From the IMG/VR virus record IMGVR_UViG_3300025030_000113, positions 1-59,163 of that record: a stretch of DNA of 59,163 nt. One strand, 5' to 3'. Every line of letters starts with the position of its first letter. Positions within the stretch are counted from its first letter, which is position 1. The notes under the pieces are model-generated. The model saw only the letters and a list, made by a program, of their open reading frames with translations. It was not told where the DNA came from and did no database searches. This DNA is from a virus. Its lineage: Duplodnaviria; Caudoviricetes. Both the position numbers and the translations under genes were made by a program. Shown here one piece after another: positions 20,220 through 48,129 of this stretch.

Positions 20220-20486
20220 ATGGCGACACCTTACGAGAGGATCGGAAACCCGGCAGGAAACGGGTACGTGCTAGCCAGCACGATCAAGGGTGTCCGATAC
20301 TGGGTGTCGCCTACCGACATGATCATAGAGGGTCTGCCGGCGCCTCCTGATGCTGAGAACGAGTATGTGCTTGCAACTAAAAATGGAGCGTTTTACTGGG
20401 TACCGTCTGTAGCTCCGGCTCCGGCTCCCGAAGTAACCTTTGGTGGAGAATCTGTGACTTTTGGTGGGGAGGTTGTCGAATGGTAA
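20220..20486 (+). CDS. short putative fibre adaptor
   Basis: Two YVLA...G..YWV repeats and C-terminal VTFGGE twice; overlaps start of fibre gene. Confidence 0.6.
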   Translation: MATPYERIGNPAGNGYVLASTIKGVRYWVSPTDMIIEGLPAPPDAENEYVLATKNGAFYWVPSVAPAPAPEVTFGGESVTFGGEVVEW

Positions 20487-23416
20487 AGCAATGGCTGGCG
20501 ATTCTTTGTGTGGCTCTGATGTTGCCCTGGCAGGCATTTGCTGTTGAACTCGATGTGGATGCGAACTCCGCAATAGATGTGAGCAAGGGCGGAACCAACG
20601 CGACTACGACATCCGGAGCAAGAACCGCGCTGGGGCTTGGCACAGCCGCGACGGCAAACACCGGGACCGGCGCGACCAACGTTATCCTCGGGAACGACGC
20701 TAGGTTGACTGACCCTCGCGCACCGCTCGTGCACAATCAGGGTGCTGAGACGATTACCTCTGGAACTTTGGATGGTGACAGGCTCCCCGCCCCTGGAGCG
20801 AAGAAGGGCGGCGTGACAAGCGCGGATATGGCAGCAAAGCGTGACGCCAGCGCTCAGGCCTCTACTGATGCCGCCCAAGACCTCGCCTTCGCCAATCACA
20901 CCTCCTCCCTCGGCCCCGCAGCCTATGCCGATTTTGGCACGGGTAGTGGGGATGCAATGGTAGGGAATGACGCAAGGGTAGTGGGGGCGCTCCAACCCGG
21001 CGCACCAGCAACCTCCATAGCCAACACCCCGGCAGGGTCGATAGCAGCTACGGACGTGGACGCTGCGCTGAGAGAGTTGGACACAGAGAAGGCTACGGCG
21101 GCGCAGGGGGCGAAGGCGGATAGCGCGTTGCAGGGCGACAGCCTTTTCAAGATGTGCAACAAGCCCCCGTATAATGCGGATAACACCGGGGCAACGTTCA
21201 CCACGGCTGCGCTGCAAAGCTGCATCAGCGCAGCTATGACATCTGGCGGGGTAGCATGGATCAGTGGCACATACAAGACAGACGCTAATATCTGGATAAA
21301 TACTGGCAGTGGGGTGATCGATGGCACGGGAACCATCGACGCCCGCGCTTCTTCGGGTGATGGGATACTTTTACTCGGGTCCAATACCGATACAGCGCCT
21401 AAAGGCACCGCCATAAAAAACATCACGGTAAGGGGCGCCGCAACTGGCAAGCACAACATAAATATTCACGGGGCACCGTACACATACCTTCCCGAAAATA
21501 TCACGGTAGAAAACGTAAAGACCCTGGACACGGTGGAAACTGGCATTTTCGCCAACGGGGTCAAAGGGTTCAAGGCACTATATAACTACAACGATGGGGG
21601 CCGACGAGCCATATCTGTAATGTCCCCGCTCACAAACCACGATCTATTGGACGATGTTCTATTGCTAGGTAATAAAACCAAGAATACGACATGGTTTGGA
21701 TATCAGACGTACTACGGCAAGAACGTCCAGCTGTTAGCAAATGAATGTGATGGGTCTCTTCTTTCTGGGGGCGACAACTCCTGTATCACAACTGATAGAA
21801 CTAACAATGTCACTGCAGCGCTCAACATACTTAAAAACTCTCCCGTTAGAGCTATGCTGATTCAGGGGGGTGACAACATATCAGTCACCGGCAACCCTAT
21901 TTCTAACTCACCGGAGGGGATAAAGGTTACAGGCAATGGCGAATACGTTGAAGATGCTGATGCCAAGGAAATTCACGGCCTCACTATAGCCAACAACCCC
22001 ATGACCAATGTCGGCAATGTTGTGATTGGCAATGGGGTCATTGGCGGAAATATCTCCGGGAACACTTGCATTTCCGACGATCCCCTAAAGTGTGGCATGT
22101 CCTTTGAAGCATTTACAAGGGGAGACTCTTATGTCATGCCACTGACATCCATGGACGTAACAGGCAACAAGATTTCCGGGGTAATCAAGAACGCCTCAGC
22201 ATATACCATAACCGCATCAAACAACGGCTCCGCAACATACAACAACACCGGGAGTGGGGACATCGTTGTTGACGGAGGCGGTGGCGGGTCGGTCACCAGT
22301 GTTACATCTGCCAATGCTGACATCGCCGTCGCAACTACCACCACAACTCCGGCACTGACACTTAACAGCGGAACCGGAGCAAACCAGATAGTTAAACTGA
22401 CCAGCGACGGCAAACTTCCGGCAGTAGATGGTTCGCTGCTTACCGGCATAACCGCAGGGGCTACACCGGCAGGTGCAGTAACAGGAGCAATTCAAGGTCG
22501 AAATGCTACGGGTAATGGGTTCGTCGCTGATGATACGGTCGTTGTCGATTCGACCAACCACCGCTTAGGCGTAGGAACGGCCACCCCTTCTACCACGCTG
22601 CATATTTTCGGCAAAATGACTATCTTCCAAAATAACAGCTCGGCCACGGAACAGGGCGTTTTGCTGTCTGGCACAGGGACCACCTTCGCCTCACCGTCAA
22701 CCGCAGACGGTGCTTTGATCCAATTGGGGTACAACGGCACCAATAACAAACAACTACTGTTTAAAGACAGCGCTAATATTGACTCCGCAATCTATGGGGA
22801 CATCAGATGTGGATTGGGTAACAAAATACCGACCATAGATGCAAGATCATCCGATAGCACAACGGCTTTTCCGATAGGTCTGGGGGGCACTGCATCGAAA
22901 GTTGCCATAGGCTTTGCAACGTCTGCGGACCACTCCACTGTTCAGGCACGATTACATGTGAAAAATACAACAGCCGCCGAACCTGCAGAAATACTGCAAG
23001 GTGCTGCATCTCAAACAGCCAATCTAACCGAATGGCGCAACAGCAGCGCAACAGTTCTATCTTCTGTTAACCCTGCCGGTGAGTTTTTGGAATCAGTCCA
23101 AGCCACAGTAACCGACGCCAACCTAACCGCCACGGCAGCATACTCAAAGTTGACAGTAACCAGCACCACGCAGAGAACTGTCACCCTCCCTGCCGTTGCC
23201 AACATCGGCATGACCACCAAACTCGTTGAGGTCTGCGGTACCGCCGTTGTGCCTAACGTAGCATGGGCGGCGGGTGCTGGCTCGGTGACGTGGGGAGATA
23301 CGGGAGCGCCTACGTTCACTAGCGGGAAATGCCAGTACATCACAGCGATCACGACCAACACGGCTGCGACATCTACGGCGGCTTGGCGGCTTATGACGGA
23401 TGGGAGGACGTGGTAA
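20480..23416 (+). CDS. tail fibre/tailspike-like protein with beta-helix domain and N-terminal signal peptide
   Basis: KGGTNATT.SGARTALGLG, GND.RL.D.R.P..H and RLGVGTATP fibre motifs; Asn/Gly-rich parallel beta-helix; MVKQWLAILCVALMLPWQAFA leader. Confidence 0.8.
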   Translation: MVKQWLAILCVALMLPWQAFAVELDVDANSAIDVSKGGTNATTTSGARTALGLGTAATANTGTGATNVILGNDARLTDPRAPLVHNQGAETITSGTLDGDRLPAPGAKKGGVTSADMAAKRDASAQASTDAAQDLAFANHTSSLGPAAYADFGTGSGDAMVGNDARVVGALQPGAPATSIANTPAGSIAATDVDAALRELDTEKATAAQGAKADSALQGDSLFKMCNKPPYNADNTGATFTTAALQSCISAAMTSGGVAWISGTYKTDANIWINTGSGVIDGTGTIDARASSGDGILLLGSNTDTAPKGTAIKNITVRGAATGKHNINIHGAPYTYLPENITVENVKTLDTVETGIFANGVKGFKALYNYNDGGRRAISVMSPLTNHDLLDDVLLLGNKTKNTTWFGYQTYYGKNVQLLANECDGSLLSGGDNSCITTDRTNNVTAALNILKNSPVRAMLIQGGDNISVTGNPISNSPEGIKVTGNGEYVEDADAKEIHGLTIANNPMTNVGNVVIGNGVIGGNISGNTCISDDPLKCGMSFEAFTRGDSYVMPLTSMDVTGNKISGVIKNASAYTITASNNGSATYNNTGSGDIVVDGGGGGSVTSVTSANADIAVATTTTTPALTLNSGTGANQIVKLTSDGKLPAVDGSLLTGITAGATPAGAVTGAIQGRNATGNGFVADDTVVVDSTNHRLGVGTATPSTTLHIFGKMTIFQNNSSATEQGVLLSGTGTTFASPSTADGALIQLGYNGTNNKQLLFKDSANIDSAIYGDIRCGLGNKIPTIDARSSDSTTAFPIGLGGTASKVAIGFATSADHSTVQARLHVKNTTAAEPAEILQGAASQTANLTEWRNSSATVLSSVNPAGEFLESVQATVTDANLTATAAYSKLTVTSTTQRTVTLPAVANIGMTTKLVEVCGTAVVPNVAWAAGAGSVTWGDTGAPTFTSGKCQYITAITTNTAATSTAAWRLMTDGRTW

Positions 23417-24039
23417 TGAGAGCTTGGATTTTCCTACTGGTTTTACTGACAGCGGCTCCTGCGTTTGCGGGTCCTGGGGTGCGGAGTGTTATGAGGGCTG
23501 GCAATAGGTGCCTCCCATCCGTGCTGAACGAAGCGACCATTACCACTACAGGCGGCTACAACATCCTCTCTACCTATTACGTCGACGCGTGTCTTCAGAA
23601 TCCCGGTGCCTCTGTAGAATTGAAAGCTGGTGGCGGCGGTGGGGCTTACGGAACCAATGGGGCTGGTATAGCAGGGGATAAGGTCGTTGCCATCGTAGGA
23701 GTTGACAATTATGAGATTTACGTAGGCCAGGGTGGGGATGGTGGATCTTCCGTCGGCGCTACTGTGTATGGCGGCTCAGGGTACGTTAGCGGGGCCAACG
23801 CAACCGACATGGGGGCGGGTGCAGGTAGCTCCGCGATCCTTGACTACGAAGAGACCACCGTGTTCGCTCAGGCCAAAGGTGGTAATGGCGCGGGAGGAGC
23901 AGTGGGGGGCGGGACGAGCACAGGCGGAACGGTGACAGCGCAAGGTGGAGCGGCTGGAGGCGCAGTATCGACCCCAGGCGCTGATGGTAACCCAGGCAGC
24001 AACGGAAGCGTGGTGATTAGGTATTACACGGCGCCGTAA
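23416..24039 (+). CDS. glycine-rich tail-tip-like protein with signal peptide
   Basis: MRAWIFLLVLLTAAPAFA leader; AGGGGG, Y.IYVGQGG.GG and G.NGSVVIRY. Confidence 0.75.
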   Translation: MRAWIFLLVLLTAAPAFAGPGVRSVMRAGNRCLPSVLNEATITTTGGYNILSTYYVDACLQNPGASVELKAGGGGGAYGTNGAGIAGDKVVAIVGVDNYEIYVGQGGDGGSSVGATVYGGSGYVSGANATDMGAGAGSSAILDYEETTVFAQAKGGNGAGGAVGGGTSTGGTVTAQGGAAGGAVSTPGADGNPGSNGSVVIRYYTAP

Positions 24040-24074
24040 GGATGACAGATGCGGAAGATGAACAGGAGCCACAC

Positions 24075-24764
24075 ATGACTTTTCTTGAACTCGTAAAACG
24101 CGCCCGGCAAGAATGCGGGATCGCCGGAGACGGCCCGATCACGACGGCGAACCAGTCCCGGGAAATGAAACGCCTGGTGGACTGGACCGCGCAGGCATGG
24201 GTAGATATTCAAAACGAGCGGTCAGACTGGGATTTTCTCTACAGGGATTTTTCCTTCCGTACCGTTGCCGGCCAGCAGGTATATGAGGCCGGCAACGGGC
24301 TTGACATCAACGTCTCCGACATGAAGAAGTGGCGCAACGATTCGTTCAGCATCTACCTGGAGACTGCCGGCCCGGGCTCGGAAATGCACCTGACGCACAT
24401 CCTCCCGTACTCAGCGTTCAAGGACTATTACATGTTCGGGGCGCAGCGGCTCACCAGGGGTATGCCGCACTGTATCTCCGTCGCGCCGGACCGGAAACTT
24501 GCGCTCGGGCCAAACCCCGAGAACGTGTACGTGGTGGAGGGGGAATACTACCGGCGTGCTCAAGTCCTGGCAGCAGACGGCGATGTCCCAATCTGCGACG
24601 AGGACTATCACATGCTGATCGTCTACGGCGCCATGAAGAAATACGGTTACTTCGAAGTGGCAAACGAACAAGTAGCCGCGGCAAAGGCCGAGCGTGACGC
24701 CCTTTACAACCGGTTCATCAATGAGTATACGCCGATGATCGAAATGGGGGGCAGCCTGATATGA
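24075..24764 (+). CDS. head-tail adaptor / tail tubular protein A-like
   Basis: MTFLELVKR.RQE.G, AW.DIQ....W.F, L.LGP.P...Y, YH.LIVY; RBS AGGAG. Confidence 0.75.
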   Translation: MTFLELVKRARQECGIAGDGPITTANQSREMKRLVDWTAQAWVDIQNERSDWDFLYRDFSFRTVAGQQVYEAGNGLDINVSDMKKWRNDSFSIYLETAGPGSEMHLTHILPYSAFKDYYMFGAQRLTRGMPHCISVAPDRKLALGPNPENVYVVEGEYYRRAQVLAADGDVPICDEDYHMLIVYGAMKKYGYFEVANEQVAAAKAERDALYNRFINEYTPMIEMGGSLI

Positions 24765-26824: not shown

Positions 26825-26827
26825 CCC

Positions 26828-27883
26828 ATGGCCGCAACAGGATTACTCGGAGCCGCAGCGCTCCCCTCGATGACTCAAGTTCCCGGCGTACCCAACGCGA
26901 CACTGACTGGCGGGACCCCCGCGGCACCCAACGCCACGCCTGCCAACGTCGCATCAGTAACAGCTCCCGCACCGGCAGCCGCCCGAACCATCACCCAGGA
27001 CGAAACCGTTTCCGGTCAACTGAACTCCCTCTTGAACGCCGACAACACGTATCTGCAAAGCGCCCGCAACCGCGGCATGGAGCAGGCGAACCAGCGCGGC
27101 CTGATCAATTCTTCTCTGGCAGCCGGGACCGCCGAACGGGCCGCTATCGATGCGGCGATGCCGATAGCGGCCCAAGACGCGAACACGAACGCGACGGCCG
27201 GCCAGTCGGCCCAGAACGCGAACCAGGATCTTAGCTTGACCGGTTACAAGTCGATCCTCGACGCCGCGCAGCAGTCGGAGAATTTCGGCTACCGCACCGC
27301 CGAGAACGACCAGAACATCGCCGCCAACATCAAACTGCAGGACGATCGCCTGAAGTCGACGGCAGATCTCCAGACGCAGGCAGAGGCGTCGCAGCTGACC
27401 CGGCAGACCCAGACCGAGACATCTGCGCTCCAGCAGCAGACGCAGCAGCAGCAGGCCACCTTGGCACTCCAGACCACGTTGAAACAGATGGATATCGACT
27501 TCGATGTCACGAAGATGGACGCATCAGCCCGCGACACGTTCACCGGCGCTGTCTCCCCGATCATCCAGCAGGTCGAAGCGGAGATTGCACAGATCCAGCG
27601 GCTACCCAACGAGCAGATGGACGCCAGGGCGAAGGAAGGCGCGATACGGGATCTGCGGGCGGGCATGGTTGCCGATATCCAGACCGTCGCCACGCTTTAC
27701 AACTACTCGCTGGATTGGCCGGTTGCCTCCAGCAGAGACACTACCAGGGCGGAACCGAGAACGGGAAGCACGGCGGTCGCACAACCGAACCCCGTAATTA
27801 ACAACCCCCGGGTCGACCAGGGGACAGGGGTAACGCCCGCGACTAGCGTGGTAGGCGACAGGAACGGGAGAGGCGGGAATTAA
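26828..27883 (+). CDS. internal virion (ejection) protein
   Basis: ETV.GQL..LL, NQRGLINSSLAA, AAMPIAAQDA; Gln/Ala-rich. Confidence 0.65.
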   Translation: MAATGLLGAAALPSMTQVPGVPNATLTGGTPAAPNATPANVASVTAPAPAAARTITQDETVSGQLNSLLNADNTYLQSARNRGMEQANQRGLINSSLAAGTAERAAIDAAMPIAAQDANTNATAGQSAQNANQDLSLTGYKSILDAAQQSENFGYRTAENDQNIAANIKLQDDRLKSTADLQTQAEASQLTRQTQTETSALQQQTQQQQATLALQTTLKQMDIDFDVTKMDASARDTFTGAVSPIIQQVEAEIAQIQRLPNEQMDARAKEGAIRDLRAGMVADIQTVATLYNYSLDWPVASSRDTTRAEPRTGSTAVAQPNPVINNPRVDQGTGVTPATSVVGDRNGRGGN

Positions 27884-28347
27884 TGCAAAACCTCCCGGCG
27901 CGAGCGATGGGGTTCAGAACCTCGGTGATGGCGCTCCAGCACCAGCACGAACAGCTGCCGCAGGTCGATTGCCAGCTGAAGCATTACTTTGCCAACGGGG
28001 CATACGTGCGCGAGGTTACCATCCCGGCCGGCACCATCGTCATCGGCAAGATCCACAAGCACGAAACCATCAACATCTTGCTCAAGGGCGAAATCACTGT
28101 TGTGACGGAAGAGGGGAGTCAGCGCCTGGTGGCGCCTTGCACGTTCATCGCCCCCCCAGGCAACAAGAAGGCGGCCTACACCCACAGCGAAGTGATCTGG
28201 CAGAACGTGATAGCCACGACGAGTACGGACCCTGACGAGATCGAGCGGGACGCGACGTGCGAGAGTTATGAGGATGGCGGGTTCCTGGAGCACGTCAACG
28301 CGAAACTGGCAGGGATAGAGTTGAAACTGGAGGCATTATGTCGATGA
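27883..28347 (+). CDS. cupin-like phage protein
   Basis: HYFANG.YVRE..IPAGT..IGKIHKHE. Confidence 0.75.
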   Translation: MQNLPARAMGFRTSVMALQHQHEQLPQVDCQLKHYFANGAYVREVTIPAGTIVIGKIHKHETINILLKGEITVVTEEGSQRLVAPCTFIAPPGNKKAAYTHSEVIWQNVIATTSTDPDEIERDATCESYEDGGFLEHVNAKLAGIELKLEALCR

Positions 28348-29081
28348 TAGCGACGGCAGTAGCGGTAGGAACCGCAGTCACCGCAGGCGTAGCAACCGGC
28401 GTAGCGGCCGCGGTAGTCGGCGGCATGGTGATCGGCGCGGTGGCCGGCGCGGTCGTTGGCGGCGTCCGAGCGGCTCTTACTGGCGGGAACATTCTCAAGG
28501 GGATCGTCAACGGGGGCCTGATCGGCGCCGCTATTGGCGGGACGCTTGGGTACGCGTTTGCACCGGCAGCTGCAGGAGCAGGGGCGGGAGCGGCAGGGGC
28601 GGGGGCGGCAGGAGCGAGTACCGCCGCGGGGGCAGAAGGTGCGGCCCTCGCATCCACGACCGTTGCCGGCGAAGTCACCCTTGGCGCGACAGGCATGTCG
28701 GCAGCGCCTGCAGCGTTCGCACCGGCTGCGGCTGCACCGGCTGCGGTAGCCGCACCGGCTGCGACCAGCGCAACAACCGGTATGATGCAGGCTGCCGGCG
28801 TTGCAGCGGTCGGGGGTGTGGCAAAGCAGGTAATGACCGGCGATGCAGCAAAAGAGGCCGCCGAGGCCGCCGAGGCTGCAAGGCTAAAGGCCGTCAAGAC
28901 TGACCCGGCAAGGACCAAAGCCACCGCAGGCAAATTCACGAAGGTCGCGGCCGCCCCCCAGCAGGTTAGCCAGGCCAGCACGCTGCAACCGGTCGTGCCG
29001 TCTCCCATGGCATACCGCAACCTGGAGCCGGCAACATCGGCGCCGATCACCCAGCAGCCCGCGCAAGGAGTGGCCGCATGA
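28338..29081 (+). CDS. internal virion protein with hydrophobic Gly/Ala helices
   Basis: GAVAGAVVGG...TGGNILKG...G.LIGAAIGG. Confidence 0.65.
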   Translation: MSMIATAVAVGTAVTAGVATGVAAAVVGGMVIGAVAGAVVGGVRAALTGGNILKGIVNGGLIGAAIGGTLGYAFAPAAAGAGAGAAGAGAAGASTAAGAEGAALASTTVAGEVTLGATGMSAAPAAFAPAAAAPAAVAAPAATSATTGMMQAAGVAAVGGVAKQVMTGDAAKEAAEAAEAARLKAVKTDPARTKATAGKFTKVAAAPQQVSQASTLQPVVPSPMAYRNLEPATSAPITQQPAQGVAA

Positions 29082-39500: not shown

Positions 39501-42500
39501 ACCCGACGAGCAGATAGAAAGCTACCTGATCGATTGGGAAGAAGCGCAGGCCAGCAAGGAAGATGACGGAGACGATGACGGCGCCGAGAAGGGACCGGAG
39601 ATTTCTTTTGACGACCTGCTGGCAGATTCCGGGAAGTCTGATTTCTCCGTCTACGATGACATTAAGACCAAACTGATCGAGAAGGGGGTCCCCGCCGACC
39701 AGATAGCCTATATCCACGACGCCAACACCGACGCGCAGAAGCATGACCTGTTCGCCAAGGTGAACTCGGGCGTGATCCGTGTCCTGCTGGGCTCCACCGC
39801 CAAGATGGGCGCCGGCACCAACGTGCAGAAGAAGCTGGTAGGCCTGCACCACCTTGACGCACCGTGGAAACCGAGCGACCTGGCGCAGCGTGAGGGCCGC
39901 ATTGTACGGCAGGGCAACGAATTCTATTACGAGGATCCCGAAGGTTTCCGCGTGAAGATCAGGCGCTACGCCACCAAGCAGACCTACGACTCTCGCATGT
40001 GGGAAATCATCGAGACGAAGGCCAAGAGCATCGAGCTGTTCAAGACGGGCGGCAAGGAGCTGCGCGAGATCGAGGACGTCTCCAGTGAGAGCGCCAACGC
40101 GGCCGAGATAAAGGCGAGCGCGGCCGGTAACCCGCTGATGCTTGAAGATTTGCAGATGAAAAACGAGATCCGCAAGTACGAGGGCATGGAGAAATCCTGG
40201 AAGCGTTCGCGCTACGACCTGGAGGACAAGGTTCACTCCGTCGAGGCGAAAAGCGCCTACCCCTACAAGCGCCTCGCTGATTTGGAGAAGGCGCAGAGGG
40301 GGCTGCAGCCGAAGAACGCCGACGCGCTCGGGCTCAAGCTGGGAAGGGTGGAGTACAACGAGAAGGAGGATTACAACCCTGAGGAAATGTTCAGGGTGAT
40401 CAGCCGGGCCTTCACGACGTCGATGCGCGACACCCGCCCGGTTGAAGTCGGCACGTACCGCGGGACCGATATTCAGGTAAGTTCCGGCCTGACGCAAAGC
40501 GTGCGCGTCGAGCTCATGTCCAACGGCGTGCGCATCGGCCTGACCGAATACACCCTGGAGGATAAATTCTCGGCGCCCGGTTTCATCACCAGGCTCGACA
40601 ACGTGGTCGACAACGTGGCGAACGATATTCGCGGGGCGAAGTCGAGCATTGCCCAGCTGGAGAAGGACGCCGCGGGCGCCCGGGAGGAACTGAAGCAACC
40701 GTTCAAGCATGCCGAGAAGCTGAAGGAGTTGCGGGACCAGCATAAGCGGGTAGTGTCTGCGCTACGCCAGGGACGGACCAGCGTTGAGGCTGCGCCGGTA
40801 GATGCTGAGACTCGATTCTCTTTGAATCAAACCAGCACCCCCGCCTTCAAGAAATGGTTCGGAGACTCCAAGGTAGTGGATGCCGAGGGTAAGCCGCTGG
40901 TGGTTTACCACGGCACACCTACAGGCGGCTTTACTGAGTTCAGCAAGGATTACCGGGGCCGCACAGGGGGGAGGTCGCGTGGTGGGTTTTCCTTCGCAAC
41001 AAACCGTGAAGCTGCCGAAGGTTACGCCAATGCTTACAATGATGAAACGGTAATTTTGGACGATGCTATACGCAAAGCCAACTCTGCACTCAGGATGCTT
41101 TCAGACACTCAGATGGAAGACATGGGGCTGGCCCCGGAAACCGAATTTTATTGGGGTGCCGTGGATGACACGGACGAGTTTTTATCCTACTTGGGGGAGT
41201 TGGCTGACAGTGCAAAGGCTTTCAACCCTGAAGCGGCAAGGATTTTAAAAGACGCTGCGGAGACAAGCAGAGAAGGCGACCCCGAAGTATATGAGGCATA
41301 CCTGAAAGTCCCTGCCAATGCCCCTGAATTTTACGCTACGCCTGAAACACTTGGCAAGGTTGTCGCAAGCTTGGACGTCCGAAACGTGCCGGGGGGTGCT
41401 GCGGTAGTCAACATGCCCAACGGAGAGAAGGTTTTCTACGTCTCTGATCCGACGCAGATCAAATCCGCCACCGGCAACAACGGAGAGTTCAACCCCGACA
41501 ACCCGGATATCCGCTTCAACCGGGACCAGACGGCCCAAGGCGCCGACGCAGCCGAGGTTCGAAACACTCTGACCTACTTCACCGCCAACATGGACAACGC
41601 GCCGGCCTGGGAAGTGGTGCAGGCTGAATCCGAACTGCCCGCAGCGGTCCAAGACGAAATCAACAGCCTCGACGCTTCCGGCGCTGTGCGGGGTGTATTC
41701 ACAGCTGGCAAGATTTACATCGTAGCCGACAACCTGAACGCGGCCGACGAGGCGGAAGCGGTGTTCCTGCACGAATCGGTAGCACACTACGGCCTGCGCG
41801 GCCTGCTCGGCGCTAGGTTCAAACCGGTGCTGCAGCAGATCGCCATGGTCTACGGCAACAAGGGGCTCAAGGATATCGCAGCACGCTACGGCCTGAACCT
41901 CTCCAAGCCTGAGGACCGGATGACGGCCGCCGAAGAAAAGCTTGCAGAAATGGCAGAGACGGCCGACCGTGTGGGCATCGTGAAGCGGGCCATTGCTGCG
42001 GTGCGTGATTGGCTGCGGCAGCACGGTTTCAAGGTGGAGTGGAGCGATAGCGATATCAAGGCGCTGCTGGCCCGGGCGCGGGGGTATGTGGAGCGGAGCA
42101 ATTCGCAGGCCACCACGCTGTTCGACGGTGACCGGTTTATGATTGCGGGCCCGGATGGCCGCGCCGACCTCCCCACCGAGACAAAGGTGCAGGCAGGCTG
42201 GCGCAAGTTCCAGGACAAGTACAACCGGGTCGACGTGCTGCAGCGCTGGCTGAAAGAACAGGGCGTGCGCCTCTCCGACCTGGCGAACGCTTCTCGCGGG
42301 CTCTACACCATGAACGGGAAAATTGCGGACCAGCTCTCGAGGTTCATGGACAACGACATTCAGCCGCTGGTGCAGGCGGCAGCAAAGGCGAAGGTGAGCC
42401 TTGACGATATCTCCGACTACCTCCTGATGCAGCACGCGGAGGAAGCAAACGAGCAGATGCGGAAACTGCACGATGACCCGGCCGCGCTGGCGTTTGGCGT

Positions 42501-44946
42501 CACCGATGCGGAAGCCGCGCAGGCGCTAGCCGACTACCAGGCCCGCCCGGACTTCACGGAGTTCAAAGCGCTGGCCGACCAGTTTCAGGCGTTCAGCGGG
42601 CAGACTGCGGATCTTCTGGAGGGCAACGGCGTAATCTCCTCCGAAATGCGAGCGGCATGGGACGGGGCTTACAAGAAGTACGTTCCGCTCCGGGGCGGTG
42701 AGGATGACACCAAGACAGGAACCGGCAAGGGCCTGCGCGTGAACGGGAAGCAGCAGCGCCGTAGCGGGCACGGCAGGCGCGACGAGCATGTGATCGAGAA
42801 CATCATCAAAGCGCGGGAACGGGCTATCAAGACGGTGGAGAAAAACAACGTCGCGCTCTCGATCGCGCAGCTGATCCACGAAGCGGCCGACGACCGGATC
42901 GGCACGATTGGAAAACCGGAGAAGCGCCGGGTGTTCAAGAGCGTGAAGCAGTACACTGTGCTGTTCCAGGGGGCGCCCGTCGCGGCCTTCACCAACGAGG
43001 CCGACGCTGATGCCTTCGTCGCTAAAGACCGCCTGGCAAACGGCAAGCCGCTCAGTGACTACATGCTGAACGTGTCGAGCGACCCCACCGTGAACTGGAT
43101 GACAAGCCCCATGCTGGGCGACAACGAGATCAACGCCTACATCAACGGTCACCAGGTCCGGATCCAGATCAACGACGAGGTGGCGGCCGGCGCCCTTACC
43201 AACCTGGGGGCCGAAGGACTCGGGACCATCCTCTCTATCGGCAAGCAGATCAACAACTATTTCAGCCGGGCCTACACCGGGTACGATCCGCGCTTCACGA
43301 TCCGCAACACGTTCAGGGACTTCACCGCAGGCATGGTGAACCTGACCGGCGACTACGGCGCGGCGACCGCGGCAAAGATCGCGGCGAACTACCCGAAGGC
43401 TATTCGGGAGTTCATCAAGGCCCGCAAGGACCCGGCCCTCTCGACATGGGTGGACCGGTACAGGAAGCAGGGCGGTTCCACCGGGGCCAGCTGGCTATCT
43501 TCCCTGGAGCGCCTGGGCGAAGACGTTGAAGCAATCTATCAGGAGCAGATCGGGAGCGTCGCCACGTACCGTAACGTGTTTGCGGCAGAGAAGGCAAAGG
43601 GCCGCTCCAACATGGCAGCAAGGGTCAAGGCGCTGGGCCGCTCGGGTGTGGCAGGGTTCCACAAGGTCCCGGTGATGGGCCACTTCCTGAAGCTGATCAA
43701 CGCCATGAACACCGTTTCCGAGAACGCTTTCCGCGTCTCCACCTTCATGACGCTGGTGCAGGAAGGCAAGAGCGAAGCGGAGGCAGGCGAGGCCGCCAAG
43801 AACAGCACCATCAACTTCGACAAGCGCGGCGAGCTCGGGGCACAGATGGGGGCGCTCTGGCTGTTCTTCAACCCAGCGATGCAGGGGGTACAACGCTCCT
43901 TCTTTGCGCTCACGCAGAGCGAGCACAAGCTGCAAGCGCAGGCGCTTGTCGGCTCCATGGCGCTGGCCGGGTTCATGGCGGCCGAGCTCGCCCGGGGCAT
44001 GGGCGGCGATGATGATGACGAGTGGGACAAGATCCCCCGCAGTGTGAAGAACAGGAACTTCGTGATCAGGACCGGGGAGAAAACGCAGATCACCATTCCG
44101 CTCCCTTACGAGTACGGGTCTTTCGTCGGCATCGGATACGCCATGAACGACGCGGTGCACGGCCGGTTCGACAAGCGGGCCGGCCTCAACCTGGCAAGCG
44201 CAATCATGGACGGCCTGGCGCCCCTTGGGAACCCCGTAAGCGACGAGGGGGATATCCAGCCCTTGGCAATGATGCCGACCGTTGCAAAGCTCGTCCTGGC
44301 GCCCAAGACGAACACCAACAGTTTTGGCAGCAGGATCGCCCCCGAGAAGTTCCAGGAATCGAAGCCCGACAGCCAGAACATGTGGCGCGGCACCAAGGGG
44401 AGCGTTTACGATAGGGTTGCCACCGGCATGAACGAGGCGACAGGCGGCAGCGAGTACAGCGCCGGGATGGTGGACGTCTCCCCGGAAATCCTGAAGTACT
44501 ATACCCGCACGCTGCTCGGGGGGGCGTTCACGTTCGTCGACCAGGTTGTAGGACTTGGTATCGTCGGCGCGAACGGAGCTCAACCTGACCTGGCAGAGAT
44601 CCCGATGGGAAGCGTGCTGGTCCGGGAGAACACGGTGCGCGATACTCGGCGCATGTTCTGGGATATCGCCAAGGATGCCAAGACGGCTATCGACGGATTC
44701 AACGCAGCAAAGAAGAACAGGGACGTCGAGGCCGCCAGGGATATCAGGCAGGACAAGGCGGATCTGCTGGCAGTCGCTGGCCTCGCCGCCCGCCAGGCAA
44801 AGCTTGCCAAGGCGAAGCGCGATGCTGTCGACGCTATCAGGCTCGATGACTCCCTGAGTTTCAGCGCGAAGCGGGCCATGACTAAAGAGCTTGAGGCGCA
44901 GGAGTCAAAGATTTACGACAGACTGATAGAGCGCTTCAATCAGTAA
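30505..44946 (+). CDS. giant polyvalent DarB-like virion protein (ParB/DdrB-like, zeta-toxin-like kinase, N6 methyltransferase, SNF2 helicase, ADP-ribosyltransferase-like, zincin-like, LPD38-like)
   Basis: QPRNR/VESGNGR (~32500-33300); GLAASGKS, D.D..K, VHEES (~34250-35070); NAHYT, LEPSMGTG, IGNPPF (~35440-36500); VGAGKT, DEAH, ATGTPISNS, QREGRIVRQGN (~37800-40100); KWFGDSKVV..YHGT..QIKSATGN.G.F (~40820-41520); HESVAHYG (~41770); INFDKRG..LWLFFN, IPLPYEYG (~43800-44600). Confidence 0.9.
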   Translation: MAEYTVFDNSTKREVTFEWNDPNPPTDADMEEVFAAASQQNPAAPSKKIFGEQGGSTMGIASEAGKKSAASGKRFLQDTAVDAVKGVVGLGESVVGGLDLVTGNLAGEGLAAVGYDPKKTDEILSSGYSAERQQANANVQGAKGFMETLGALVDNPSVAFGSIVESAPLSLGSAAAARTLAVRLLARAGIAPGTAAATEFFANPATQAKLLAAAAGTEGAMTAGSIQEGGRQGGRDYTDTVLPALAAGAVTGTISAVTSKIPGFKDAEVSAATAGMAGEAAGGILQAGKEIAKSMFKEGVLEELPQSAQEQVFTNLAMGKPWDEGVGEAAAQGMVAGMGQGGGMTAVSETMNRKDAIRSRLDKMRGKTSVVVPDTGVSDPTVSVDDAIAAAAAEVSGGWDRGNRDELLKSLGGEVDPVAEAISGARGSLDVADPARALADPMLREIEGAQLTADPFKDYPLTRPIIQPGAPTAAGGEIVGVEGYRQKDVIPNQPILNDEQQAVQDTFLKGGPALNRDAIDEVLANQNDPNLADEIAKGRQEAEALRQAGQLPVAEQTNPNGAGPSPVTKVDAPAQPLPAPGAFSPPAPKVETTPAAKIETPLSAVQQEFIRGKVKALGSIDAVQAKYGDQAAPVDRYARDFAAQHFAPAKKVAEQAPIAAPTTGPKMVRGRANKAFTAKGDKIYSSFAVVEADDLVASHSADGTPNPKYPQEIQPRNREKVSSQLQIQQMSQALRPAQLGESAKVSSGSPFIGPDGVVESGNGRTLAIRQAYDTDKAGEYRAWLESEAARLDVNPAEIKGMKKPVLVRVRETEVDRPAFAREANQAGMAAMSPAELAKSDAARITPDHIGSLNVGDDGNLLSSGNRPFVSAFLKGLGSSEAAGLTDAQGLPTRQLADRMQAAIFTKAYNDPKLVSMMAEESDVDIKNIITALNAAAPAFVRTEAKEIVGKLTDAIGMIREAKQRGLTLDDFLSQQDMFSGGRDADAETIARGIGGMMRSGKKMAEAFRSLADAAGRNNDYASQGNLLGDKAKTPSEIISDVFKQAGPQAQQQPLLNQEPEAKQPAPKPDNGKSRIENELDELSDDDVANMISSAMAAPTDRPAAKVEKVKRIKAAVVAGKKPRGAASLLADAAKEAGQGFADSLKALAASYGVDESKLSAFPAGFDADGYAKAKPHFLSAWEHYKAAGKGLVEFVQYLGDKLGRLIPGFESQLGYFFGEMRGKHSFEADLAEQSKPAGYQYPDQRPVLTEAGLKDIVPTDYMEKVDASLELPETYRIDTPEREQMREAAAEKLYGDGAKNKDYRVDIILGLAASGKSSVANPIAKEHGSLVLDCDDAKELLPEFDNGNGSNAVHEESSDIFGRAYQRALLAGDNLVLPLVGGSLPSLERRLKALANAGYDVHLHYVDLPMQKSVERLLSRYNETGRLMDPRLIVNNGLHPFKNYSIVKSQGGITNESDQGGQEKRPGVRVGGMAGVDSGQLDDQSGRGSRGGQGEADYRVESATFYNNDKPFGAPNIIVESQTNPTPKPAKGPRVSVQVSAAEGGKGVSAVSDKKLGAKEPDAAGRAEGQDSDEPGAGAPANVGSERPAQVSESAPSGSGDTAIGAADAAAGEGDRGAGGQPAPRPVRNAADVRGPSHVTGSARNFTITNELEFGGVGAKSKFKNNVEAIRTLQTLESEARPATPDEQATLARYVGWGGLPQAFDEKKKDWAKEYAELKALLTPEQYETAVSSTQNAHYTAAEVVKGIWAGVQRLGFDRGSVLEPSMGTGNFFGLMPRELRSMSKMTGVEFDHITGMIAKHLYPQARVHAPLGFQDLQIVPESFDLAIGNPPFGAKPVFDPNSKTLSKFKIHGYFFAKSVDSLRPGGVLAMVVSKGFLDANDATGKQQRDYVAARAKLLGAIRLPDTAFSVNAGTEVTTDIVFLQKLAPGEQGNSAEWSEMGAVQDPATGADIQINKYFVSNPDMMLGEMALRGGAWRAGGAILAARAGEDLGEKLQAAIEKLPKNVMASGKRTTQDLNNAAAASLKNVDSVRPFNFFMENGKLYQRMPDMNGDTQARQLDHIGTTADRIAGMVELRDAVRKQLALEANEKSSDMAIDHNRKVLNTLYDAYVKRYGNLNNDTNKRLFWDDADSPLVRSLEKSFDKGLSKDLAKKQGKEAREASAKKADIFTKRVLSPAMEVTKVESAPDALSASMNEKGRVDFPYMEAIYGKDAEQITKELGESVYEDPSAGWLPASEYLSGNVKAKLAEAINAAKSDPKYGRNVEALDAVQPEDVPAADIFVAPHAFWVPEEVYHQFAAEVLQGTMAGGYSRATHSWNVRFTSSDNTLNTAKLGTGRMSATTIMSTLMANKQIAVYDPNPQKDGARILNASETAAAQGKADELTELFQDWIWKDQARRQKVVRKYNDLMNTTVDARHDGSHMTFPGMSPTFQFRPHQKNAVYRSVQTGVALYDHVVGAGKTAVITATAMELRRLGLAKKPMVTVPNHLVEQWAAAFAKIYPQAKVLAATKKDFKKENRRQLFAKIATGDWDAVIIAHSSFKFIPVPPAIQMEILDEQKAEILQALREAKEDAGKKLSVKKLQEAKDRIEAKIQALADMPKDDLLNFEEMGIDALFTDEAHEFKNLFYTTTMQNVAGLGDPTGSGRAFDMFIKTQYLMRRNGGKGVYFATGTPISNSLAEVFHMQRFLQYGELKARGLANFDAWASAFGLATSDWEQDAGGRYKQKTRFRKLVNLPELKQLWRQVTDTITNPDLIRDAEQQGKTFPLPKIEGGKPQNVVVERSPQQAEYIGIPREKTDDDGNVIVNTENGMPVVEYDPGTIVYRMEHWLDEKKKGNTREMPLVITGDARKAGLDFRLIDENSPDFAGSKTNTAVNEIHEIWKENDHRKGTQLVFIDLSTPKAHKGQNLAKMAETVPTYFVKDRGTIQHVAGKPVKLDAIQAEWEFFSFKKGKSVRVYERMSGLEIGEGANVTEAKANATEKLARIPVHVMEQRFRDQAIPDEQIESYLIDWEEAQASKEDDGDDDGAEKGPEISFDDLLADSGKSDFSVYDDIKTKLIEKGVPADQIAYIHDANTDAQKHDLFAKVNSGVIRVLLGSTAKMGAGTNVQKKLVGLHHLDAPWKPSDLAQREGRIVRQGNEFYYEDPEGFRVKIRRYATKQTYDSRMWEIIETKAKSIELFKTGGKELREIEDVSSESANAAEIKASAAGNPLMLEDLQMKNEIRKYEGMEKSWKRSRYDLEDKVHSVEAKSAYPYKRLADLEKAQRGLQPKNADALGLKLGRVEYNEKEDYNPEEMFRVISRAFTTSMRDTRPVEVGTYRGTDIQVSSGLTQSVRVELMSNGVRIGLTEYTLEDKFSAPGFITRLDNVVDNVANDIRGAKSSIAQLEKDAAGAREELKQPFKHAEKLKELRDQHKRVVSALRQGRTSVEAAPVDAETRFSLNQTSTPAFKKWFGDSKVVDAEGKPLVVYHGTPTGGFTEFSKDYRGRTGGRSRGGFSFATNREAAEGYANAYNDETVILDDAIRKANSALRMLSDTQMEDMGLAPETEFYWGAVDDTDEFLSYLGELADSAKAFNPEAARILKDAAETSREGDPEVYEAYLKVPANAPEFYATPETLGKVVASLDVRNVPGGAAVVNMPNGEKVFYVSDPTQIKSATGNNGEFNPDNPDIRFNRDQTAQGADAAEVRNTLTYFTANMDNAPAWEVVQAESELPAAVQDEINSLDASGAVRGVFTAGKIYIVADNLNAADEAEAVFLHESVAHYGLRGLLGARFKPVLQQIAMVYGNKGLKDIAARYGLNLSKPEDRMTAAEEKLAEMAETADRVGIVKRAIAAVRDWLRQHGFKVEWSDSDIKALLARARGYVERSNSQATTLFDGDRFMIAGPDGRADLPTETKVQAGWRKFQDKYNRVDVLQRWLKEQGVRLSDLANASRGLYTMNGKIADQLSRFMDNDIQPLVQAAAKAKVSLDDISDYLLMQHAEEANEQMRKLHDDPAALAFGVTDAEAAQALADYQARPDFTEFKALADQFQAFSGQTADLLEGNGVISSEMRAAWDGAYKKYVPLRGGEDDTKTGTGKGLRVNGKQQRRSGHGRRDEHVIENIIKARERAIKTVEKNNVALSIAQLIHEAADDRIGTIGKPEKRRVFKSVKQYTVLFQGAPVAAFTNEADADAFVAKDRLANGKPLSDYMLNVSSDPTVNWMTSPMLGDNEINAYINGHQVRIQINDEVAAGALTNLGAEGLGTILSIGKQINNYFSRAYTGYDPRFTIRNTFRDFTAGMVNLTGDYGAATAAKIAANYPKAIREFIKARKDPALSTWVDRYRKQGGSTGASWLSSLERLGEDVEAIYQEQIGSVATYRNVFAAEKAKGRSNMAARVKALGRSGVAGFHKVPVMGHFLKLINAMNTVSENAFRVSTFMTLVQEGKSEAEAGEAAKNSTINFDKRGELGAQMGALWLFFNPAMQGVQRSFFALTQSEHKLQAQALVGSMALAGFMAAELARGMGGDDDDEWDKIPRSVKNRNFVIRTGEKTQITIPLPYEYGSFVGIGYAMNDAVHGRFDKRAGLNLASAIMDGLAPLGNPVSDEGDIQPLAMMPTVAKLVLAPKTNTNSFGSRIAPEKFQESKPDSQNMWRGTKGSVYDRVATGMNEATGGSEYSAGMVDVSPEILKYYTRTLLGGAFTFVDQVVGLGIVGANGAQPDLAEIPMGSVLVRENTVRDTRRMFWDIAKDAKTAIDGFNAAKKNRDVEAARDIRQDKADLLAVAGLAARQAKLAKAKRDAVDAIRLDDSLSFSAKRAMTKELEAQESKIYDRLIERFNQ
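34816..34844 (+). promoter_or_regulatory. internal sigma70-type promoter within giant gene
   Basis: TTGCAC-17 bp-TATCGT in an AT-rich patch of an otherwise GC-rich ORF. Confidence 0.55.
34868..35005 (+). CDS. nested out-of-frame gene 1 (45 aa), candidate antitoxin of the zeta-like domain
   Basis: AAGGAGG at 34853-34859 then ATG; MKATKVDKRNGLVYGSAEWQEWILDNSMTKAEEGAAAAKEKQTTA. Confidence 0.6.
   Translation: MKATKVDKRNGLVYGSAEWQEWILDNSMTKAEEGAAAAKEKQTTA
35144..35506 (+). CDS. nested out-of-frame gene 2 (120 aa), helical, loosely TnpV-like
   Basis: AAGGAGG at 35132-35138 then GTG; globular Leu/Glu-rich sequence while the giant frame is low complexity. Confidence 0.6.
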   Translation: MSQQSVIKNLGLKSRMQLDELKGKIPMNLGLELLQMWEASDPRRFQSLRLQDLVIPLLEQQTLLLEKAIEAQVDSPHLVLYETLQMCGVPLTLQEALGTSRSRMSLSSVESALSQSSRTT

Positions 44947-45086: not shown

Positions 45087-45106
45087 GTAGCATAGGAGGC
45101 CACACC

Positions 45107-45421
45107 TTGCCATCAGCCATCGCAGTTCTTTGGGCATCTGCAATCGGGTTAATAGCGGCCATGGGCTGCATCATCGCGTGGCTGATAAATAAGGGATTCG
45201 ATACGGTCAAAGCAAGTATCGAACACCAGTTTCAGGTTTTATGGGGAAAGTTCGACGAGTTTCAGAAGTCCTACAATGCGACAGCTGCCAGTCTACAGGC
45301 CCACAAGGAAGCAGAAGAGGTCAGGGAACGTGCCTGCGCCGAGCGGCACCGAAAGATTGATGAAGAAATTGAGCATCTAAGAGAGCGACGGGGAGAAAGA
45401 CGCCATGAACAGGAACTATAA
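45107..45421 (+). CDS. membrane protein with coiled coil (possible holin)
   Basis: RBS AGGAGG, TTG start; one N-terminal hydrophobic helix, charged C-terminus. Confidence 0.55.
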   Translation: MPSAIAVLWASAIGLIAAMGCIIAWLINKGFDTVKASIEHQFQVLWGKFDEFQKSYNATAASLQAHKEAEEVRERACAERHRKIDEEIEHLRERRGERRHEQEL

Positions 45422-46034: not shown

Positions 46035-46047
46035 AGGGGAGGGGTTT

Positions 46048-48129
46048 ATGAGGATCTGGTTTAGCTTAATCGCAGTTCTTTGCATGTTCACGTCGGCGCA
46101 GGCCGCCGTCATCACGCCCGCGTTCGGCAAGTGGAGTTCAGCTGGGGGCTCGGTCGACGCCGGGAAGCAGAACGTCAACACCATGCAGGTGCTGGGGGCC
46201 ACCTTCAGTAAGCCTGGCGGGAAGCCGACGATGACAATCCCGACAGCGGCGACGGAACTCACTGCCGCTGCTGAAGCAACGCCTGCCGACAGCGCGACGT
46301 TTGGATTCCTGGACTCGGTATTTAAGAGGCTCACATGGGCTAATCTCAAGGCGATACTTCGGGGTGGGGTGGCCTACGATACGGATTACGCGAACCTTAA
46401 TGCGGCTGTGACCGCGATAGGCAGTACGCCGCGAACGCTGAAAATTACAACGGACCAGACGCTTACCGCCAACCTCACCATCCCCGCCAACATCGAACTG
46501 CTCCCCCTAAACGGCGCAGTAATCAATCACGGCGCCTACATCATCAGCGGTCCCGGCATGGCAAACACGGCGCGATGGCCGCTGGCACGGATAGTTAACG
46601 GGACCGGGTTGGTGTCAGGACTGAAGATGTCCCGGCCCGAGTGGTTTGGCGCTGCCAGGGACGGGGTAGCAGATGACTCCGCTGCCATAACCAAAGCCGC
46701 TGCATCTCTTGACTCGGGGGGGCTCTTTAGTTATTCCCCGGGGAGTTACGGTGTCGGCAGCACATGGGTAATAGATAAAATTATCACGGTGCGCGGAGCA
46801 GGTCAAAATTCCACCTTTTTAAACGTGTTGGCTTCTATGGATGCTGTTATTTCGGCGGGCACGGTGGGCGGTGCCACGTCGGTAAGGCTGAACATTGCCG
46901 GGATCAACATCACCGGAAACGGTCTGGCAGATTATGGCATTTACGGGTATACCGCGCTCAGTATAATCGAGCAGAATTATGTCAGCGGCACTATAGTTTC
47001 AGCGATGGCTTTAGAAGGATGGTCTAGCCGTATCACGAATAACACACTGACCGGGAATACAGGAGACGGGGTGCAAACCATTGGGAGGGCGGGTTACTGC
47101 CAAAACCTAGTGTTAAGCACTAACAAAATATACGCTAATGGCGGGTGGGGGTTTTTTGTAGGCAGTGGAAGTGGTAACACGGTTTTGCAGAACAATACCA
47201 TCGAAAATAATGACAAGGGAGCGGCCTATATATGGGGCAATGTCTACCTTTACAACATAGATAAAAACTACCTGGAAGTAAATGCTTCGGTCGGTCACAC
47301 ATTTACAACGCCTTCCTTTAACGTCAAGACCAATATTCTTGTTAACGGTTCGCCCGATCCTAGCGTTTTCGCACCTACGTACCCACCAAATGTAAACATG
47401 ACCAACAACCATGTGACAGGCGGGGATTCCCTTGCCTTTGTGACATCGACAAGCATGTTGAATGTGGAGGGTAACAACAATCAGGCAGGCACTCGCGTTC
47501 TTGTCGCCACGTATGGCAATCCAAGCGGCATTATCTCTTCCTACGGGTCACTGTCTAATGCCGCCATTGGTTTGAACCAGGGGTTTACATCCACCGTTTC
47601 ATATACATATGTCGGAGTTGACGGCGTGCTACGGTGTTTGGATAGCCTGACCATCAAGGGCGTATCCAAACGTAACATAGCTAAGACTGTATTAAGCGGT
47701 TGGACTAAAGTTATAGACAACGGCGCAGCTTCAACATTCGCGGTGTCCGCCATAGCTTTTTCGCAAGACCCCACCCGTGTTGTTTATGAGTTGATCGATG
47801 CCGATTCTGCCGCTTCTGATGTTTATGGATTCAGCATAGATGCCTCGAAATACCCGCAACTCCATGGCAAATACATGTCGTTTAGTGCATGGATTAAAGC
47901 TACGGGGTCCGGCAACGTTAACCTCTATGTTAAGGGCGTTGCTGGCAGCGCTGTTGCATACAGTGCGGGGTGGGTGAAGTCCACGAATTACATTTTCGTT
48001 ATGCCTACAACCGGAACGTTAGTTTTCGGTATTGCCAAGGATAGCGCGGGGAGCACCGCGCAGGTTACAGCGCCCGTACTCGCTGAATACGGAAATAGTG
48101 TGGATGATCTGATGGCGGTAATCCCATAA
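46048..48129 (+). CDS. tailspike/depolymerase-like beta-helix protein with signal peptide
   Basis: L.AAVTAIGST..TL.I, PEWFGA..DGVADDSAAI..A (pectate-lyase-3-like start), Asn-rich beta-helix; MRIWFSLIAVLCMFTSAQA leader. Confidence 0.85.
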   Translation: MRIWFSLIAVLCMFTSAQAAVITPAFGKWSSAGGSVDAGKQNVNTMQVLGATFSKPGGKPTMTIPTAATELTAAAEATPADSATFGFLDSVFKRLTWANLKAILRGGVAYDTDYANLNAAVTAIGSTPRTLKITTDQTLTANLTIPANIELLPLNGAVINHGAYIISGPGMANTARWPLARIVNGTGLVSGLKMSRPEWFGAARDGVADDSAAITKAAASLDSGGLFSYSPGSYGVGSTWVIDKIITVRGAGQNSTFLNVLASMDAVISAGTVGGATSVRLNIAGINITGNGLADYGIYGYTALSIIEQNYVSGTIVSAMALEGWSSRITNNTLTGNTGDGVQTIGRAGYCQNLVLSTNKIYANGGWGFFVGSGSGNTVLQNNTIENNDKGAAYIWGNVYLYNIDKNYLEVNASVGHTFTTPSFNVKTNILVNGSPDPSVFAPTYPPNVNMTNNHVTGGDSLAFVTSTSMLNVEGNNNQAGTRVLVATYGNPSGIISSYGSLSNAAIGLNQGFTSTVSYTYVGVDGVLRCLDSLTIKGVSKRNIAKTVLSGWTKVIDNGAASTFAVSAIAFSQDPTRVVYELIDADSAASDVYGFSIDASKYPQLHGKYMSFSAWIKATGSGNVNLYVKGVAGSAVAYSAGWVKSTNYIFVMPTTGTLVFGIAKDSAGSTAQVTAPVLAEYGNSVDDLMAVIP

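Follow-up and report, generated by a model that had tools for sequence, protein, structure and literature searches.

The pIII protein of the Ff filamentous phages is a receptor-binding protein that carries a Sec leader and joins the particle outside the cytoplasm; it has a C-terminal inner-membrane anchor and the particle that it joins is extruded. The subject of this report is a tailed phage in which leaders of the same kind stand on the putative host-recognition proteins. It is the uncultured, podovirus-type (short-tailed) phage of the Caudoviricetes held as IMG/VR record IMGVR_UViG_3300025030_000113, whose fibre (P0001), small glycine-rich companion protein and beta-helix spike (P0003) all begin with predicted Sec signal peptides. 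The window analysed is the whole 59,163-bp genome held for this record, a single contig. Like pIII, the fibre and the spike appear to be phage receptor-binding proteins with a Sec leader, their export being predicted. Unlike pIII, P0001 and P0003 lack a second hydrophobic segment, since a hydropathy scan finds the N-terminal one only, and a portal, an HK97-type capsid and a lysis cassette set this phage apart from the Ff phages.

Several late proteins of tailed phages are exported, among them the secreted and signal-anchor-release (SAR) endolysins, the spanin lipoproteins and T4 RI. What the present locus has in common with endolysins, spanins and lambda Lom is the occurrence of Sec or lipoprotein leaders on late-operon products, and the window itself encodes such an endolysin together with an open reading frame (ORF) that has a lipobox. 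In contrast to the fibre and spike of this phage, however, endolysins, spanins, T4 RI and lambda Lom are neither fibres nor spikes and are not part of the virion.

The adaptor-plus-tailspike systems of podoviruses, of the K1-5/SP6 type and the Klebsiella KP32/KP34 type, reportedly employ leaderless spikes that dock in the cytoplasm. The spike locus described here resembles them in combining a small conserved particle-side protein, a short N-terminal docking piece and exchanged beta-helix bodies, the first two roles being assigned to the candidates P0196 and a 44-residue module of P0003. It differs in that the putative docking piece always stands behind a Sec leader (14/14), which is predicted to be cleavable. 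Neither a sequence match nor a fold match to the known podovirus adaptors was found here.

The T2/S16 gp37-gp38 adhesin is composed of a fibre and a downstream tip partner. A fibre-chaperone 'cap' module of the Alteromonas phages A5 and V22 is reported to be common to unrelated phages including an N4-like one (PMC10579305). P0001 and its companion are reminiscent of both systems as here too a small gene directly follows the fibre gene, the junction between tip and partner is conserved, the bodies of the partner are exchangeable and the module is mobile. Unlike in gp37-gp38 and A5/V22, fibre and partner both bear leaders, the partner bodies are glycine-rich, similar to a carbohydrate-binding module (CBM-like) or of another kind, and the pairing of fibre and partner is putative.

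The MAT fibres of Bdellovibrio bacteriovorus comprise a signal peptide, a conserved N-terminal domain, a phage-like trimeric fibre and variable tips, and they show that proteins with tail-fibre folds can undergo export and assemble extracytoplasmically (Caulton et al. 2024, PMC10769870). They are encoded by cellular genes and work on the predator's own surface, whereas the genes described here lie in a phage structural operon. Proteins of the Bdellovibrio type do occur among the matches of P0001, as weak matches that cover 5-15% of its length.

The original prediction had proposed that Sec leaders on tail fibre and tailspike proteins could represent an undescribed system, and a literature search of full texts, with supplements outside its scope, gave no description of such leaders on tailed-phage fibres or spikes. 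What appears to be new is the presence of export leaders on tail fibres and spikes together with a leader-linked, putatively docking 44-residue module. If true, this would amount to a two-compartment assembly route that is not described for the Caudoviricetes, and the textbook rule of cytoplasmic assembly would have an exception. Receptor-binding proteins of such phages would then have to be expressed in the periplasm if they are to fold, both the leader and the docking module would become functional elements to be considered in predicting host range and in engineering phages, and lysis would double as the final assembly step. Should the proteins act in the envelope of the infected cell instead, they would be fibre-shaped factors for exclusion or release, and as such a new class. 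The window offers testable handles in the form of defined leaders, the predicted N-termini VELD, GPGV and AVIT, the leader-linked module and the candidate partner P0196.

Leader sequences and start codons

Leaders had been noticed on four ORFs, at 12936, 20480 (P0001), 23416 (the companion) and 46048 (P0003), and all four are present at these starts with the sequences originally given for them (Table 1). A home-made rule, distinct from SignalP, was used for detection; under this rule a leader must be 15-32 residues long and have an n-region of net positive charge, a hydrophobic core of 9 or more uncharged residues, and small residues at both -3 and -1. Five of the 52 gene products pass this strict rule for a Sec/signal peptidase I (SPase-I) leader, namely the four above and the GH108/PG_binding_3 endolysin at 48208, which was absent from the earlier list. 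When the N-termini were shuffled with their composition preserved, 99 of 10,400 passed, equivalent to 0.5 expected per 52 proteins. The predicted cleavage sites reproduce the mature starts that had been named for the fibre, companion and spike (VELD, GPGV and AVIT), and the RR motif of the twin-arginine translocation (Tat) pathway is absent, as the four leaders begin with MVKQW, MRAW, MRIW and MKRF.

A Shine-Dalgarno sequence is found 4-9 nucleotides (nt) upstream of all five leader starts (GGGGAGG, GGGAGGA, GGGGAGGGG, AGAGGTGA and AAGGAG), and no credible start was found just behind a leader, which answers the earlier concern that the true starts might lie downstream of the hydrophobic stretch. 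As every leader-coding start has its Shine-Dalgarno site, the leaders are not accounted for by misassigned start codons. P0001 and P0003 have no internal start with a ribosome-binding site past their leaders. The companion gene does contain an in-frame ATG (Met26) 5 nt past a GGAG, and Met26 is invariant in 9 of 9 aligned companions. Promoter- and terminator-like sites around the cassettes that carry these genes are no commoner than chance.

The Sec-type leader predicted on the endolysin shows that the phage would already route one late protein through Sec. The homologous endolysin in the metagenomic loci L007 and L008 is leaderless, its residue 2 aligning with residue 28 of the window protein. 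The small 12936 protein belongs to no Pfam family, and searches of cultured phages gave no relative of it or of P0001, P0003 or the companion. For P0001 and P0003, searches of IMG/VR and of 185,579 species genomes were likewise negative; both are also present in the database on a contig of 59,366 bp.

Conserved modules of the spike and of the fibre-companion pair

P0003 is a predicted tailspike-type protein with a body of the right-handed parallel beta-helix kind, its residues 281-401 matching the Pfam family Beta_helix (6.1e-10). When residues 1-201 were compared by phmmer with 1.84 billion cluster representatives, 512 matches were obtained at E<=0.001. Nine proteins from this search, four from an earlier search for relatives and P0003 itself make up a set of 14 cluster representatives that share the 44-residue module near their N-termini. 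All 14 carry a leader, as does a 77-residue fragment (P0179), and a leaderless protein with the module was not encountered (0/15). Each of the 14 leaders has a K or R within its first five residues, no acidic residues and small residues at -3 and -1, and the hydrophobic cores have KD10 values of 2.6-3.8. Mean pairwise identity among the 14 proteins is 32% in the leader, 68% in the module and 23% in the 44 residues that follow, the bodies beyond being unrelated, and a PAF motif always lies 4-6 residues past the predicted cleavage site. Drift of the leader with its properties held fixed is, judged by sequence, the mark of a working signal peptide ahead of a conserved N-terminal module with exchangeable bodies. 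Conservation of the leader in homologues, which had been suggested as a check, is found in 14 of 14 spike-module proteins and 11 of 11 companions (see below), with the sequence drifting. The ten module-bearing proteins that were looked up lie on contigs of 3.3 to 80.5 kb, and none turned up in the 185,579 species genomes, in IMG/VR or in cultured phages. An AlphaFold2 model of whole P0003, built from an alignment of four rows, was unusable (predicted local distance difference test, pLDDT, 29.4), and an Atlas search with the first 200 residues of the spike gave weak leads of at most 0.84.

The wider spike family was surveyed at the N-termini of 153 proteins, 15 from the relatives search and 138 further phmmer matches. 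The automatic rule sorted these into 58 with a signal peptide, 20 with a lipobox and 75 with neither, with a few visible errors both ways, and a list made by eye gives 77 with a leader and 76 leaderless. A second, different N-terminal anchor (...FLLSQVR...) is found in 33 of the 153 proteins, behind a leader in 20 and without one in 13, and the same anchor stands at residue 1 of gp20, the leaderless putative tailspike of the cultured Pseudoalteromonas podovirus H6/1. As this anchor occurs both on the leaderless gp20 and behind leaders, it seems that leaders have been added to real virion-type anchors. Many of the leaders on these anchor-bearing proteins are of the lipoprotein type.

P0001 belongs to no Pfam family. 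Its relatives, of which there are 38 at E<=0.001, are named collagen-like or tail-fibre-domain proteins, and one of them contains Pfam Collagen. The central part of P0001 is 86% identical to P0005, and a C-terminal tip of about 110 residues is common to other fibres at 63-92% identity, being shared by five of the 38 relatives at 63-89%. Three of these five tip-sharing fibres (P0005, P0007 and P0010) have a plain leader and P0008 has a double hydrophobic one. In P0008 (L006, 9536-9760) and in P0011, which also has the shared tip, a membrane helix is followed by a proline-rich linker of about 50 residues and a second hydrophobic segment that ends SQA/G (the slash denoting the predicted cleavage site).

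The companion gene overlaps the fibre stop codon by 1 nt. A metagenome scan returned ten loci, and in all ten a small gene of the companion type lies directly 3' of the fibre tip, as it does in the window. Across the 11 companions the leader and the mature start GPGVRxVMRA are always present, and three unrelated bodies follow them. The first is glycine-rich with 207-209 residues and two cysteines (window, L005 and L010), the second has 159 residues and a match to CBM_4_9 below the cut-off (5.4e-4; 20.8 versus 25.9 bits) and is complete in six loci and truncated in L003, and the third, of 140 residues with two cysteines, is known from a single locus. For the glycine-rich body, Gly_rich_2 is an Atlas feature lead only (0.92), Pfam being silent at E<=1. 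Since both the fibre and the companion have leaders, the same compartment would be reached by both.

The end of the fibre gene and the beginning of the companion gene form a junction block (Table 1) that recurs, whole or in part, in all ten metagenome loci at 83-90% nucleotide identity with differing flanks; the aligned segment measures 409-415 bp in six of the ten. In L006 the block lies ahead of an adaptor-like gene, and in L007 and L008 it is found at the end of the structural genes, beside the lysis genes. A complex model of three fibre tips (residues 855-978) with the mature companion scored 0.26 against a mark of 0.32, a value that weighs neither way on binding. Two further ideas were dropped as being without support, namely that P0198 and P0001 are fused by a frameshift and that translation continues past the fibre stop codon into the companion. 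Downstream of the fibre-companion pair of L009 (4350-7600), leader-like N-termini are seen on ORFs of 462 (+), 424 (+) and 190 (-) residues.

Probable export and the proposed site of action of the proteins

From these features we infer that the N-termini of fibre, companion and spike are genuine Sec/SPase-I signal peptides. Export is very likely because the leaders are canonical, their starts are well supported, they are kept up under drift in the module relatives, they occur on both partners of the fibre-companion pair and the endolysin has one too. The host-recognition parts of this phage are thus probably made outside the cytoplasm.

What the proteins do after export is less certain, and the reading that fits best, which we hold tentatively and at slightly less than even confidence, is that they are receptor-binding parts that join fibreless particles at lysis. 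It is proposed that the fibre, the lectin-like companion and the spike would be translated late alongside the structural genes, threaded unfolded through SecYEG and cleaved after AFA, AFA and AQA, respectively, and would then fold and trimerise in the periplasm while particles are assembled without fibres in the cytoplasm. The leader-bearing endolysin and a spanin-type lipoprotein would open the envelope, and the particles would meet the periplasmic pool. There the spike would dock via its 44-residue module, which starts 4-6 residues past the cleavage site, its likely docking partner being the leaderless P0196 encoded just upstream, and the conserved fibre tip would hold the companion, which would serve there as a replaceable adhesin or cap. 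For T4 and P22 it is a classical finding that fibres or tailspikes can be added in vitro to complete particles, and late docking is for this reason physically plausible. That a tailed-phage lineage builds its fibre, tip adhesin and spike in the periplasm and docks them at lysis via a module found only behind leaders is a more novel claim, and one to which we lend a shade less credence again.

In favour of docking, the spike has an adaptor-like layout in which a conserved leaderless gene of 209 codons precedes a spike with a conserved module behind its leader. P0196 is conserved in 11 protein clusters at 54-92% identity, and one homologue, P0206, and the module-bearing spike P0058 are each found on a contig of 36,930 bp, apparently one and the same. 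P0196 is thus a candidate for the particle-side base of the spike. Protein Data Bank (PDB) sequence searches with P0001, P0003, P0196, the nozzle, P0201 and P0202 returned nothing meaningful.

Apart from P0001 and P0003 the genome encodes no large fibre or spike protein, and no further fibre- or spike-like gene products were seen elsewhere in it. The earlier statement that there is no signal-less receptor-binding gene is hence mostly right, with three candidates left over. The first is the cupin-like protein, which follows the nozzle gene and a Q/A-rich protein of 351 residues; it matches the PHROGs category 'short tail fibre' (2.5e-44), and in T7-like Ralstonia phages it is named 'hypothetical' or 'short tail fiber'. 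The second is P0198, directly ahead of the fibre gene, and the third is P0196.

A number of observations weigh against export followed by docking. Tailed-phage particles assemble in the cytoplasm, no docking site was found, and the leader calls rest on the home-made rule instead of SignalP. A model of P0003 residues 20-230 was obtained with a pLDDT of 83.7, but a Foldseek comparison with the PDB found nothing (best E 0.25), and the N-terminal part of the spike has neither a fold nor a sequence match in the PDB to known particle-binding domains. The tip-sharing fibre P0009 is leaderless as annotated, and about 20 of the 153 wider-family proteins have lipoprotein-type leaders, which would keep them tethered to a membrane. 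A cysteine signature of oxidative folding was not found among the 153 spike relatives, where leader-bearing proteins have a mean of 5.3 cysteines (38 even, 37 odd) and leaderless ones 6.2 (36 even, 40 odd), a difference in the wrong direction (Mann-Whitney p = 0.04). Within the FLLSQVR group the means are 4.05 with and 4.62 without a leader. The idea of paired cysteines was consequently rejected for the spike family, as the two classes do not differ in the expected direction; the 2, 2, 2 and 9 cysteines in the mature leader-bearing proteins of the window are suggestive at most.

Further points against concern the origin of the genes. The nearest record, the uncultured phage MW202426.1, has a collinear backbone of portal, scaffold, capsid, a homologue of the 19514 gene, adaptor and nozzle, and relative to it the window carries an inserted stretch, 20220-24039, that separates the 19514 homologue from the adaptor. 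The inserted genes are low in G+C at third codon positions (GC3), as are those at 45107 and 46048 (Table 1); GC3 is 0.72-0.88 in portal, capsid, adaptor, nozzle, P0196 and the giant protein. MW202426.1 has no leader in 35 ORFs, and its fibre-like genes, situated after the nozzle, are leaderless. An inserted low-GC3 cassette is equally compatible with an add-on and with an exchanged receptor-binding module.

The main rival, which we regard as somewhat unlikely, is that the proteins are exported and act as non-virion accessory factors in the envelope of the infected cell. Such a factor might be a depolymerase or lectin that cuts or covers a surface polysaccharide receptor, so preventing superinfection or keeping progeny from adhering to debris, or it might assist release through a matrix; the nozzle, P0196, P0202 or another tail protein that lacks a leader would then be the true receptor-binding part. 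The foreign composition of the fibre cassette and its insertion relative to the nearest relative are in keeping with this, as is the presence of the tip-plus-companion block in differing backbones and positions (L006 versus L007 and L008). The fibres that share the tip have unrelated N-termini, so that a backbone-specific anchor is not evident, and the fact that the 44-residue module is never leaderless would tie its function to the extracytoplasmic space. Leaders of the lipoprotein type are frequent among the wider relatives of the spike. There are also precedents for exported proteins that are encoded among tail genes. T5 Llp is one of these. Lambda Lom is another (PMC12309495). On the other hand, with a purely accessory role the genome would have no large fibre or spike left. 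The proteins are built like virion receptor-binding proteins, with a short conserved N-terminal module ahead of a variable body in the spike and an exchangeable small partner at the fibre tip. The genes are translationally coupled within the structural operon, P0198 overlapping the fibre gene by 7 nt, the fibre gene overlapping the companion gene, and 2 nt separating the companion from the adaptor, and the genome showed no sign of a function for outer-membrane secretion or anchoring. Of the original interpretation, export is supported by the leaders conserved in homologues, whereas docking on particles and the roles of secreted depolymerase or receptor masker are not separated by sequence.

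It is considerably less probable that assembly is cytoplasmic and that the hydrophobic N-termini serve as a temporary inner-membrane tether or a buried helix, or that a leaderless isoform is the one that matters. Cytoplasmic assembly is the textbook route, and the similar cysteine counts of leader-bearing and leaderless relatives agree with it; the Met26 start might furthermore provide a leaderless isoform, for the companion only. P0001 and P0003, however, have no internal start with a ribosome-binding site from which such an isoform could be made. Moreover, the 14 drifting leaders are all positive in the n-region, free of acidic residues and small at both -3 and -1, as would be predicted under selection for SPase-I cleavage but not for a buried helix with fixed contacts. 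That the leaders are chance hydrophobic stretches or products of misplaced start codons is highly improbable, given five passes against 0.5 expected, a Shine-Dalgarno site at every leader start and conservation in homologues.

Genome layout and neighbouring genes

The capsid protein of the phage is distantly N4-like and has 51% identity to that of MW202426.1. The features of the window are collected in Table 1.

Table 1. Features of the 59,163-bp window (aa, amino acids; a slash marks the predicted cleavage site)
Feature	Position	Strand	GC3	Description
Small and large terminase	10432-12209			
Small protein (12936)	12936-13319	+	0.82 (native)	127 aa; 25-residue Sec-type leader; 2 Cys in mature part
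Leader of 12936 ORF				MKRFALIVAAAFAVATFSICTAAVA/ANYV
SU10/P22-type portal	13834-16173			
Major capsid protein	17273-18340			phrog_1357, 4.1e-52
P0198	20220-20486	+	0.53	88 aa, leaderless; two short fibre-like repeats; first gene of inserted cassette
Fibre P0001	20480-23416	+	0.56	978 aa; leader codons 1-21 (20480-20542); predicted mature start VELD
Leader of 20480 ORF				MVKQWLAILCVALMLPWQAFA/VELD
Junction block	23090-23498	+		409 bp; fibre tip, companion leader and first 10 mature codons (GPGVRxVMRA)
Companion	23416-24039	+	0.55	207 aa, glycine-rich; leader codons 1-18 (23416-23469); predicted mature start GPGV; 2 mature Cys
Leader of 23416 ORF				MRAWIFLLVLLTAAPAFA/GPGV
SU10-type head-to-tail adaptor	24042-24764	+		First backbone gene past inserted fibre cassette
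Nozzle-like protein				687 aa
Cupin-like protein	27883-28347			154 aa
Three internal-type proteins	28338-30492			Precede giant protein; zero cysteines
Polyvalent (giant) protein	30505-44946	+		4813 aa
45107 ORF	45107-45421	+	0.51	104 aa
P0196	45405-46034	+	0.76 (native)	209 aa, leaderless; directly upstream of spike
Beta-helix spike P0003	46048-48129	+	0.58	693 aa; leader codons 1-19 (46048-46104); predicted mature start AVIT
Leader of 46048 ORF				MRIWFSLIAVLCMFTSAQA/AVIT
Spike module	46114-46245			Conserved, 44 residues; P0003 residues 23-66
Lysis region	48208-49501			
Endolysin, GH108 + PG_binding_3	48208-48864	+		27-residue Sec-type leader ending AHA/A
Lipobox ORF	48861-49118	+		85 aa; starts MRAMILLVLLLPGC, lipobox-like; overlaps end of endolysin gene
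DUF1353 protein	49115-49501	+		4.3e-21
Replication module		Leftward		Toprim primase, helicase, C5 methylase, ThyX

The lipobox ORF that overlaps the endolysin gene is 68% identical to an ORF of L011 that bears the motif LLTGC, and its predicted product looks like a spanin-type lipoprotein. The 45107 ORF, just before P0196 and 3.4 kb upstream of the lipobox ORF, encodes one N-terminal membrane helix followed by a charged coiled-coil tail and may be a candidate holin or inner-membrane spanin. The DUF1353 gene comes next after the lysis genes and occupies the same place in L007 and L008, with 88% identity in DNA and 92% in protein.

No exact terminal repeat of 11-200 nt is present at the ends of the window. 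A reading frame stays open across them, from 58594-59163 into 1-1548 on the plus strand, with its first ATG at 58861; this would fit a genome that is circular or circularly permuted and whose cut lies within or immediately ahead of the Gp3-like (PF18897) gene (151-1548). A remnant of 63 residues on the minus strand (49832-50023) aligns with no more than the final 44 positions of Pfam Phage_integrase (3.9e-10). This truncated tyrosine recombinase hints at a temperate ancestor; a full integrase was not seen in the genome.

The giant polyvalent protein occupies the place that the virion RNA polymerase has in N4-like phages. Its recognisable domains are ddrB-ParB, Zeta_toxin/AAA_33, an Eco57I-type methylase, ResIII/SNF2/Helicase_C, ART-PolyVal and LPD38. 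It contains a single cysteine, and there is none in the three internal-type proteins that precede it or in the 351-residue protein at 26828; this near-absence would fit proteins that are ejected through the envelope. The C-terminal part of the giant protein, about 960 residues (3724-4682), matches a 3145-aa protein of MW202426.1 at 26%.

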